NCBI RefSeq assembly: GCF_003991155.1
Contig: NZ_CP031293.1
Length of the DNA stretch: 64,000 nt
Direction: 5' to 3' (one strand)
Origin: Escherichia coli
GTDB lineage: Bacteria > Pseudomonadota > Gammaproteobacteria > Enterobacterales > Enterobacteriaceae
Positions 61,659-63,469 of this stretch are shown piece after piece (within the stretch, counting starts at the first letter, position 1; each line of letters opens with the position of its first letter). Under the pieces are notes generated by a model. The model was not told the DNA's origin. It did no database searches and saw only the letters and a program-made list of their open reading frames with translations. The translations under genes and the position numbers were made by a program.

Positions 61659-61678
61659 CAAAAGACACCCTCTGCCTA

Positions 61679-62101
61679 TCATTCGATAGTCTCAAAATAT
61701 TCCACCTGCAGAGAATCACGGTGCTCAATGATGCAATAACGCTGGAAATTATTTGCATAATCACTTTTATCATGAAAAAACCATATACAATCGTTTTGTA
61801 GACTCGGTCCCATTCCTTTCAAAAAATCTATTAGCTTTGCTTTCTGAAGAAAAATATTATCTATATTTCGCCATGTAACAATCACTCTTGTTTGCATATC
61901 ATCAACATTATAGTAATAGCTATACTCGGCTACGTTTGATATATTTGGCAAATTTCGCAAACTCTCTGGCGTATAAAGGAAAAATGGGGAAAGTTCATGC
62001 TGTGTATAGTGATGTTCCTTTGACATCAATGAGATATAAGCATAGAAAAATATAAAGAATAAAACTAAAAATGATAATAAAATATAAATATATTTTGACA
62101 T
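61679..62101 (-). CDS. hypothetical small membrane-anchored protein (N-terminal TM helix), second gene of an AT-rich two-gene cassette
   Basis: 140-aa ORF MSKYIYILLSFLVLFFIFFYAYISL...; ATG 6 nt downstream of the preceding ORF stop; low GC. Confidence 0.65.
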   Translation of the reverse strand: MSKYIYILLSFLVLFFIFFYAYISLMSKEHHYTQHELSPFFLYTPESLRNLPNISNVAEYSYYYNVDDMQTRVIVTWRNIDNIFLQKAKLIDFLKGMGPSLQNDCIWFFHDKSDYANNFQRYCIIEHRDSLQVEYFETIE

Positions 62102-62107
62102 CTCTAC

Positions 62108-62959
62108 TCACGACCTGTGCGGATAATGAGGGTTTAAGAAAAGAAAAAGCGGTCTTTCAAAGGGAGATTCTGAAAACTTTATAGCTCCCGAACTTGATAA
62201 TGAACTATACAACTCATGATTTATTCTGTTTTTATCTTTATAATAATTAGTAATAGGTCTATTATTATATTGATTATATAACAATGTTGAAAAAGACTCA
62301 TCTAATGGCTTTATATAATTTAACCATTCTGGAAGCTTCTTTTTTATTAGTTGATTTTTTTTAAAAGGAGGATGGGTTGTAAATAAGAATGGCGTAAACT
62401 CAGTATTTTTAAAATTCCCTGGCGCTCCATATGTATCCCATATTTGTAAGGCTTTTGTGTAAGATAAAGGTTTTGCCAATAAAAGTGGATCGGGGCCTGT
62501 TCCAAATACACGATAAAAACCAATCAAGTCTGAGACTAAATCTTCTGCACTAAATCCGCTATCAGTATACCAGTTAAAAATAAATGAGTTTTGCCATGCT
62601 TCAAACCTCTTCGCAGTTCCATACATTAACGTTAAGGCAACTCTTGCTTTAAGAGTGGGTGAAAGACATGAACGAACCATAACCTTCGTATAAACACCGG
62701 TATGAAATGTAAGATCTACTCCTAATATTTTTTCCCGAATTCCCATTTCCTGATGATAATCAACAGGAAAATACCAATCATGAAATTCATCGTAATATGT
62801 TGAAAAATGTTCTTGCTCCAATTTTCTTTTTAATATTCTGGCATCTTGTCCCTGAGCATGCCCCAAATCGATCCAACCTAACTCTTCGGTATAAACTAAT
62901 CCATACTTTTTCGTTGTTGCAAATATTCCATCAGTAATATCGTTACGTTTGCTCATCAC
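62108..62959 (-). CDS. hypothetical protein, 283 aa, first gene of an AT-rich two-gene cassette
   Basis: ORF MMSKRNDITDGIFATTKKYGLVYTEELGWIDLGHAQGQDARIL... with GAGGGGAGA Shine-Dalgarno upstream; no family recognised by eye; low GC. Confidence 0.7.
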   Translation of the reverse strand: MMSKRNDITDGIFATTKKYGLVYTEELGWIDLGHAQGQDARILKRKLEQEHFSTYYDEFHDWYFPVDYHQEMGIREKILGVDLTFHTGVYTKVMVRSCLSPTLKARVALTLMYGTAKRFEAWQNSFIFNWYTDSGFSAEDLVSDLIGFYRVFGTGPDPLLLAKPLSYTKALQIWDTYGAPGNFKNTEFTPFLFTTHPPFKKNQLIKKKLPEWLNYIKPLDESFSTLLYNQYNNRPITNYYKDKNRINHELYSSLSSSGAIKFSESPFERPLFLFLNPHYPHRS

Positions 62960-63435
62960 AATCTCCCCTCAAAAAAAACGTATAGCAAATAATATCAATA
63001 AGGAAAAATATTATTTTTCAATGTTTTTTTGTATACAATTCATTTTATGAATGAATTTACAAAGATAGCTGCGCCTGATACCGCTACACTTTTGCCAGAC
63101 CATGTTCTCCTCTGAGGGAGTAACTGGCGCTTTTCATAGAATGCCGTACTTTTTTCAACAACTGCCACATCGAACGGCATTTATGGTGGCGTGAAGTGCC
63201 TGCCATAACCGCTCAATGTGGTGTTCCTACGATGAACAAACCGCTTGATATATTCTCCTGATACAACCGGACAATATGTTCATGATGGGTATCCCGATAC
63301 ATAAGCCTTCGTTTTATTTTTACAAAAAGAAATCGTTGTCGATATTTTATCAAGAAAAAAATAATTCAGGTAAAACGATTCAACTAAAAATAACTAAAAT
63401 TAATCCCCCGTGAAATATATAAATAACGTCAGATG

Positions 63436-63468
63436 AAGAAAGCAAGGGGGGCCCCCCCTTGCTTTCTT
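63436..63468. repeat. near-perfect GC-rich palindrome at the araC-side boundary of the cassette (terminator-like)
   Basis: aagaaagcaagggggg / ccccccttgctttctt inverted repeat immediately after the araC stop. Confidence 0.6.
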
Positions 63469-63469
63469 A

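Follow-up and report, generated by a model that had tools for sequence, protein, structure and literature searches.

A two-gene cassette between yabI and araC of Escherichia coli as a candidate orphan type VI secretion effector-immunity pair

The 64,000-nucleotide stretch of Escherichia coli DNA analysed here (contig NZ_CP031293.1 of assembly GCF_003991155.1, hereafter the window) carries an AT-rich cassette of two genes, designated A and B, inserted between yabI and araC. On balance, this cassette is probably an orphan effector-immunity pair of the type VI secretion system (T6SS), 'orphan' meaning that the pair is located away from the T6SS genes, with A as the predicted toxin and B as its membrane-anchored antidote. 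According to the proposed mechanism, A, which has no signal peptide, would be synthesized in the cytoplasm, probably attached to or enclosed in Hcp, and injected into adjacent Gram-negative cells, where it would act in the periplasm at the outer face of the inner membrane. There it might cut or transfer the phosphate-linked head groups of membrane lipids, such as undecaprenyl-linked cell-wall precursors, as proposed for the Lipocone superfamily; this chemical target is the most conjectural step of the scheme. The N-terminal helix of B would fix it in the inner membrane and leave a folded domain in the periplasm, where B would bind and neutralize the A arriving from sister cells. Some parts of the E. 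coli population are losing the toxin gene to decay and keep B, and there the main present value of the cassette may be protection from attackers equipped with the toxin.

Family assignment of protein A

Homologues of A, which RefSeq lists as a 'hypothetical protein' (WP_000044498.1), were retrieved in Enterobacterales and beyond, 268 of them by a word search and 300 by a full HMMER search. Identity to A reaches 62-71% in Citrobacter, Salmonella and Trabulsiella, about 50% in Rahnella and Buttiauxella, and about 40% in Serratia, Yersinia, Pectobacterium, Xenorhabdus and Pantoea, where the proteins usually have 230-234 amino acids (aa). The E. coli subgroup displays an extra C-terminal region of ~50-80 residues that is missing from these shorter relatives. 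In an alignment of 83 relatives, G27, D30, Q122, S133, S136 and S142 are invariant, W28, G32, H33, E138 and D139 are at least 90% conserved, and two motifs can be written as G27-W28-I29-D30-L31-G32-H33 and S133-G-F135-S136-A-E-D139.

The same motifs are found in CapCone-1, one of three 'CapCone' families of the Lipocone superfamily, which was defined computationally as a predicted lipid-head-group toxin domain (Burroughs, Nicastro and Aravind, eLife 2025, PMC12419801). In the CapCone-1.tsv file of the corresponding supplement, GWIDLGHA occurs 48 times and TDSGFS 59 times, and the motifs GW(I/V)DLGHA and TDSGFSxEDLVS are common to A and to this list. A Rahnella sequence of the list also contains the WYFPVDYYQEM and MVRSCLS stretches of A and is clearly orthologous in type; the accession of the E. 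coli protein itself is absent from the PMC12419801 files examined. Since the published list holds both the motifs of A and a Rahnella sequence of the A type, A is assigned by its sequence to the CapCone-1 family.

The published description of the family can be followed residue by residue. In helix 2 of A, a glycine lies six residues before the histidine and the xD motif starts four residues before it. In helix 4, the S/GxxSxx pattern precedes the aspartate, with a serine three residues before the latter and directly after an aromatic residue. The CapCone signature further includes a small residue and an asparagine four residues after the helix-4 aspartate (PMC12419801); the position following the invariant S142 is D143 in E. 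coli A, and N in the hhalign family consensus and in most CapCone-1 supplement sequences. The AlphaFold2 model of A (predicted local distance difference test score 91.2) displays short helices only before residue 37, strands at 53-55, 60-77 and 80-95, then long helices at 100-122 and 139-151. The features expected of the CapCone-1 fold are present in this model, namely the beta-hairpin 'clasp', the extra strand between helices 1 and 2, and a degenerate helix 1. The protein is soluble, its highest 19-residue hydropathy being 0.96.

Domain databases were less informative on A. Pfam returned DUF4056 (PF13265) alone, below significance (E = 0.6, 9.8 bits); among the 83 relatives this domain was matched by 12 at E<=0.001 and by 45 at E<=0.1, and some relatives are labelled 'DUF4056 domain-containing' in UniProt/NCBI. 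Judged by these scores, A is a relative of DUF4056 and not a scoring member. Three relatives of A contain a LysM peptidoglycan-binding domain and a few show weak DUF2279 or VanZ matches. Scans of both A and B produced nothing usable with NCBIfam and nothing meaningful with PHROGs.

Protein B and the evidence for immunity

Every A homologue examined on a large contig is followed by a B-like gene of 137-168 aa. A word-based search with B alone retrieved near-identical E. coli copies only, and Pfam detected no domain in B or in 60 of its relatives. The gene located after the A homologues aligns weakly with B, and a profile derived from these neighbours recovers 77 proteins of about 140-150 aa, all devoid of Pfam domains. 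The original prediction, made from the sequence of the window alone, had described a single N-terminal transmembrane helix in the small protein, and this is what was found: the model of B has a hydrophobic helix at residues 3-25, a membrane helix is present at the N-terminus of 59 of 60 family members, and its N side is the more positive one in 60/60. Exactly two cysteines follow the helix in 53 of the 60 proteins, and 46 possess a C-x5-C motif. These sequence features point to a periplasmic topology of B, in which an anchor helix holds a folded domain outside the cytoplasm.

B evolves faster than its neighbour. In all 28 matched pairs it is more divergent than A (mean identity 27% vs 48%), and pairs whose A proteins are most alike also have the most similar B proteins, so that B tracks A. 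A tandem B paralogue, 62% identical, is present in Pectobacterium.

The two genes also differ in their fate. In strain Nissle 1917 (locus L032, 1330-2177) a 1-bp deletion splits A into open reading frames (ORFs) of 77 aa and 190 aa next to an intact B; both genes are intact in strain 83972. A C-terminally truncated A of 202 aa circulates in E. coli (385 member sequences) while B stays full length, and several frameshifted forms occur as well (proteins concerned: P0005, P0032, P0034 and P0037). An unbroken A retaining the whole set of signature residues is found in the window, in 83972 and in the largest protein cluster (963 member sequences). In Pseudescherichia vulneris (L024 7967-8450; also L025-L027), an orphan gene of the B family is located between nadA and cpoB, and an A-type gene of which only the 11 initial codons (MSKRKDIVEGIY) are left directly precedes the intact B. 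The toxin gene has been deleted there almost exactly, and the partner kept with its upstream region.

Because B combines a periplasmic topology with a faster divergence that tracks A, is duplicated in Pectobacterium, persists as an orphan in Pseudescherichia and accompanies a broken A in Nissle 1917, a predicted role as immunity protein is favoured over that of a transport helper.

Association with hcp, Rhs proteins and T6SS

An hcp gene (PF05638) lies directly upstream of A-B pairs in Rahnella bruchi (L013), in Buttiauxella (L022), where hcp-A-B is located between araD and polB, and in Pectobacterium versatile (L023), where hcp-A-B-B' is located between bioD and uvrB. Rahnella bruchi has an orphan A-B pair and, 2.3 kb further on, hcp succeeded by a paralogue of A and one of B; the hcp-linked A copy is 47% identical to A over its whole length. 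Between the two modules of this locus (L013 10001-15090) stand a LysR regulator and an oxidoreductase gene; hcp accompanies the second module alone, and the copies are 67% identical for A and 31% for B. In protein P0275, residues 83-160 form an Rhs-associated core (TIGR03696, E 2.5e-20) and residues 169-327 an A-like domain, which on this architecture is the C-terminal tip of an Rhs toxin; the RHS core protein among the Foldseek matches of A is in agreement. The gene contexts of the longer relatives P0145 and P0257 were not informative.

The hcp and Rhs contexts were found independently here and agree with the published table of CapCone-1 contexts, in which RHS is N-terminal in 94 loci, HCP is upstream in 8 and a small partner is downstream in 89 (PMC12419801). 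A survey of Salmonella also flagged as candidate effector a DUF4056 ORF belonging to a two-gene unit inside the T6SS cluster of Salmonella pathogenicity island 6 (SPI-6; PMC11669294). An N-terminal hydrophobic segment is absent from A and from 81 of the 83 relatives, as determined by a hydropathy test and not by a dedicated signal-peptide predictor.

The presence of T6SS in E. coli was assessed with four tssC fragments representing the variants found: CFT073 type at metV, Sakai type at aspV, and AR Bank #0349 type. These markers match 3,644 genomes, the union with the island-carrying genomes being 3,704. Strain 2016C-3878, whose island is 100% identical to that of the window, carries tssC. No T6SS was found at its aspV site, where many E. 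coli have a T6SS cluster; the site is empty. AR Bank #0349, a record near-identical to 2016C-3878, contains a complete T6SS cluster with hcp, vgrG, DUF2169 and PAAR-Rhs genes. The hcp of Buttiauxella has no DNA match in E. coli.

In the window's clade, the T6SS cluster (L034 1480-10817, NZ_CP041996.1) has a large PAAR-like protein (4,419 bp gene) at its end, followed by Rhs fragments, an imm11-family gene and an ISEc1 copy, an array of other effector/immunity genes.

Distribution and organization of the cassette

The stretch containing A and B was detected in 486 of 5,426 complete E. coli genomes (9%), always as a single chromosomal copy, and 484 of the 486 carrier copies are at least 99% identical. 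The carrier lineages include uropathogenic, avian-pathogenic and probiotic ones, among them Nissle 1917, 83972, ATCC 25922 and avian-pathogenic E. coli (APEC) strains. K-12-like sites are empty.

Along the window, thiP, thiQ and yabI are followed by the AT-rich block and by araC, the latter truncated by the window end (Table 1). The original prediction had placed about 1.8 kb of AT-rich DNA between yabI and araC, and given a spacing of less than 100 bp for K-12. Alignment with a K-12-like empty site, in which the two genes are 85 bp apart, agrees with both statements and delimits an insert of ~1.8 kb at about 61664-63465. G+C content is 0.26-0.39 across about 61600-63400 and 0.51-0.64 in the flanks, with means of 0.34 for the whole island, 0.34 for A and 0.31 for B. 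The two ORFs are co-directional and separated by 6 nucleotides with B downstream of A, in accordance with the coordinates and the lengths first given for them (283 and 140 aa).

Table 1. Features of the yabI-araC region of the window.
Feature	Position	Strand	Remarks
yabI	60760-61524	minus	ORF and RefSeq annotation
Relic of the 11-codon K-12 araC tail (EKVNDVAVKLS, then stop)	61609-61645	minus	intergenic, between B and yabI
Degenerate copy of the araC 3' end, GTGCCGATTGTGAAGAA	61643-61659	minus	yabI-side repeat copy; 12/17 match
ORF B	61679-62101	minus	140 aa; N-terminal membrane anchor and periplasmic alpha/beta domain (predicted); predicted immunity protein
ORF A	62108-62959	minus	283 aa, GTG start; RefSeq uses an ATG one codon later (62108-62956, 282 aa)
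IS630-family transposase remnant	63084-63223	minus	between araC and A, upstream of A; frameshifted, N-terminus missing
Perfect GC-rich palindrome, AAGAAAGCAAGGGGGGGCCCCCCTTGCTTTCTT	63436-63468	both	directly after the araC stop codon; carried by the insert
araC 3' end with stop codon, GGGCTGGATGTGAATAA	63470-63486	minus	araC-side copy of the direct repeat bounding the cassette
araC	from 63470	minus	cut by the window end

Three features of the region had escaped the original prediction: the IS630 remnant, the palindromic terminator after araC, and an araC shorter by 11 codons than that of K-12. The remnant is known from the RefSeq annotation of the identical stretch of strain 2016C-3878 (L001 4585-4724). 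It is absent from the Citrobacter and Salmonella cassettes, in which araC and A are 167 bp apart. Arrival of the insert by means of IS630 was considered and is unlikely, because the Citrobacter and Salmonella versions have the same boundaries without the remnant. The palindrome was scored by a terminator scan as a terminator-like hairpin on both strands. An Rfam scan of the island yielded sub-threshold chance hairpin matches only, and a promoter scan upstream of A found no consensus site.

In three genera a direct repeat borders the cassette on both sides and corresponds to the final ~16 bases of araC with its stop codon. Its two copies match exactly in Citrobacter (CGCTGGATGTGAATAA; L002 about 7815-7833 and 9305-9322) and have decayed in Salmonella (L006) and E. 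coli. The yabI-side copy runs on into the sequence that codes for the last 11 AraC residues in K-12; its stop TAA reads GAA in the window, and Citrobacter and Salmonella keep TAA in both copies. AraC itself has 281 aa in island carriers, where it ends in GCE, and 292 aa at K-12-like empty sites. The flanking repeat resembles either a target duplication or a site of attachment type; repeats of this kind would allow a clean and precise excision of the cassette.

The same site holds the cassette, with a low G+C content in each case, in E. coli, in Citrobacter freundii and in one Salmonella enterica assembly. The description of the block as a foreign insertion needs to be qualified accordingly. 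Identity between genera at the site is 68-69% for A, against 92-95% for the flanking AraC and 85-88% for YabI. Since A is so much less similar than its conserved flanks, the pair is either old, fast-evolving and repeatedly lost, or it has moved between genera by recombination in these flanks.

A third allele of the junction occurs in other E. coli (L016, NZ_CP051706.1; L017, NZ_CM190152.1), where a metabolic island downstream of araC encodes a tripartite tricarboxylate transporter, a dihydrodipicolinate synthase-family protein and a PfkB kinase, with ISKpn26 in addition in one strain. The araC gene beside this allele is only about 91% identical to that of the window. Strain 2016C-3878 also contains, at another place, a small integrase-bearing element adjoining tRNA-Thr after proA (L028 34642-47476 = NZ_CP029747.1 684642-697476), which includes a major capsid protein gene and many hypothetical genes.

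Weighing of the explanations

A number of observations weigh against the cassette being an effector-immunity pair. In four Citrobacter freundii loci (L002-L005), A is intact with its motifs and it is B that is frameshifted, at a poly-A tract which has two lengths among the isolates (100-aa and 90-aa products), both out of frame. A broken B beside an intact A is awkward if A is an active, self-delivered toxin; the break could result from phase variation, from an assembly or homopolymer sequencing error, or from a real loss tolerated with an inactive or undelivered A. The cassette has no hcp, vgrG or PAAR gene as a neighbour in E. coli, Citrobacter, Salmonella, Yersinia or Serratia, and no T6SS genes lie within 8-10 kb of the pair in these genera; in the window and the identical RefSeq locus, no hcp, vgrG, PAAR or T6SS adaptor gene is found next to A. 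With 282 aa and about 33 kDa, A is large for a cargo carried inside the Hcp ring. The tssC marker is present in at least 426 of the 486 island genomes (88%) vs 3,218 of the 4,940 others (65%), an enrichment that is uncorrected for shared ancestry. Finally, the gene downstream of CapCone-1 in 89 loci was annotated 'PsbP/Mog1', a toxin-transport mediating domain (PMC12419801).

The enzymatic prediction calls for still more caution. The A-family profile had no match in the sequences of the PDB at E<=10, and a Foldseek search of AFDB50 with the A model returned uncharacterised family members and one RHS core protein only. Compared with 18 TelC-family sequences of the PMC12419801 supplement, the profile reached a probability of 0.2%, and A gave no match to TelC by profile or fold. 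The comparison with 18 YfiM-DUF2279 sequences gave 78% and E 1.8e-5, over only 16 columns, which correspond to the helix-4 motif GFSxEDxxxNxxG; HHpred links of CapCone-1 are given as 66-88% in PMC12419801. In view of these comparisons, the target is handled here as a hypothesis: action on phosphate-linked lipid head groups, perhaps those of undecaprenyl-linked precursors, is a published proposal that the conserved residues of A fit and weakly suggest. That A is the first Gram-negative T6SS effector with Lipocone (Wnt/TelC-related) chemistry, and B a new Mog1/PsbP-like class of membrane-anchored immunity protein, is a conceivable but rather doubtful extension.

Among the competing explanations, the E. 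coli cassette could be a decaying relic that is no longer fired, B alone being useful against the CapCone-1 toxins of, for example, Citrobacter, or else the cassette being neutral baggage. The lack of an adjacent delivery gene would be accounted for in this manner, as would the IS630 remnant sitting where relatives have hcp, the common truncated or frameshifted forms of A beside a full-length B, and the Pseudescherichia precedent. The intact A with its complete signature in the window, in 83972 and in the 963-member cluster argues the other way, together with the near-identity of almost all carrier copies and the frequency of the T6SS marker among them, and we consider this explanation unlikely, yet the most credible of the rivals. 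It is also unlikely, and ranked below the relic, that B is a T6SS loading or transport helper for A, PsbP/Mog1-like and analogous to the Eag/DUF1795 chaperones, immunity being absent or encoded elsewhere. The PsbP/Mog1 partner of PMC12419801 is very probably the B family, which gives this proposal its published basis. The Eag chaperones are, however, cytosolic proteins that match DUF1795 and bind the N-terminal transmembrane segments of PAAR/Rhs effectors, a description that B does not fit, and the properties of B enumerated above point to immunity.

Two further proposals place the action of A in the cell that makes it. As an anti-phage or abortive-infection module, the pair would associate a membrane sensor with an enzyme damaging its own envelope upon infection. 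Two tightly coupled genes of low G+C at a variable site with at least three alleles would suit such a module, and immunity roles have been discussed for other Lipocone families (PMC12419801). PADLOC (PADLOC-DB 2.0) nevertheless reported 0 families for both proteins at E<=1, the PHROGs scan had no meaningful match, recognisable defence genes were not seen near the relatives examined, and the hcp and Rhs associations point to interbacterial delivery. One of three Serratia loci (L011) lies just downstream of phage tail genes, the other loci having housekeeping neighbours. This proposal is the least likely of all, and very improbable. Hardly better placed is an accessory housekeeping pair modifying the lipids or polysaccharide intermediates of its own envelope, as proposed for VanZ and YfiM. 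The weak profile links of some relatives to DUF2279 and VanZ and the common chromosomal site in three genera speak for it; it is difficult to reconcile with an A devoid of export signal although its partner faces the periplasm, with a patchy distribution and frequent frameshifts, with the very fast divergence of B, and with the existence of Rhs-tip and hcp-linked versions. The orphan effector-immunity pair thus stays the preferred explanation. It retains one half of the original prediction, which had suggested either an effector/immunity pair or a small anti-phage module: the first is backed by the hcp linkage, the Rhs fusion, the periplasmic B and the orphan and duplicated B genes, and the second found no backing in the searches just mentioned.

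Significance

The cassette had also been put forward as something not yet described. This holds in that both proteins are hypothetical in the databases and no experimental work on the CapCone-1 family was found in the literature; it does not hold for the family of A, defined in silico as CapCone-1, whose Hcp, Rhs and small-partner contexts were tabulated computationally in 2025 (PMC12419801). New here are the assignment of the E. coli genes to CapCone-1, their distribution in the population, the evidence for an antidote over a helper, and a downgraded chemistry.

If the preferred explanation is true, about 9% of sequenced E. coli carry a predicted weapon-and-shield pair. Being small and easy to clone, this pair would open the CapCone branch to experiment for the first time; within the proposed Lipocone superfamily, chemistry has until now been established only for TelC and the phosphatidylserine synthases. 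The pair is relevant, too, to a disagreement with the literature, namely whether the conserved small partner is an antidote or a loading factor. Should the more specific proposal of a Lipocone effector and a new immunity class be true, the published secretion-helper interpretation of the partner would be overturned, and Nissle 1917, 83972, ATCC 25922 and the APEC strains would possess an unrecognised antibacterial weapon or shield beside araC. Independently of these considerations, the insert alters the C-terminus of AraC.

Comparison with known systems

The closest known system is CapCone-1 itself, which shares with A-B the motifs, the RHS and HCP contexts and the small downstream partner (PMC12419801). 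The partner was interpreted there as a transport domain, whereas the evidence collected here favours immunity. DUF4056 proper ('CapCone-DUF4056', PMC12419801) is a sister family whose usual neighbour encodes an outer-membrane beta-barrel (151 upstream), and not Hcp, Rhs or a B-like gene, unlike the relatives of A. TelC, the lipid II phosphatase toxin of Streptococcus intermedius, is exported by a type VII system, has TipC as immunity protein and belongs to the ClaspCone-CapCone-TelC clade (PMC12419801). Its toxicity is restricted to the outside of the cytoplasm, and the immunity protein opposing it acts in the periplasm (PMC12419801). The same toxin and antidote logic is proposed for A-B, but neither profile nor fold comparison relates A to TelC.

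The Tae/Tai amidase and Tle/Tli lipase pairs are T6SS effector-immunity pairs that act in the periplasm and are encoded next to hcp. A has no sequence or fold relationship to these enzyme families. The likeness lies in the organization of the pair: an effector without signal peptide is followed by an immunity gene with a signal sequence, a lipobox or a membrane anchor, hcp-linked copies coexist with orphan ones, and immunity genes outlive their effectors.

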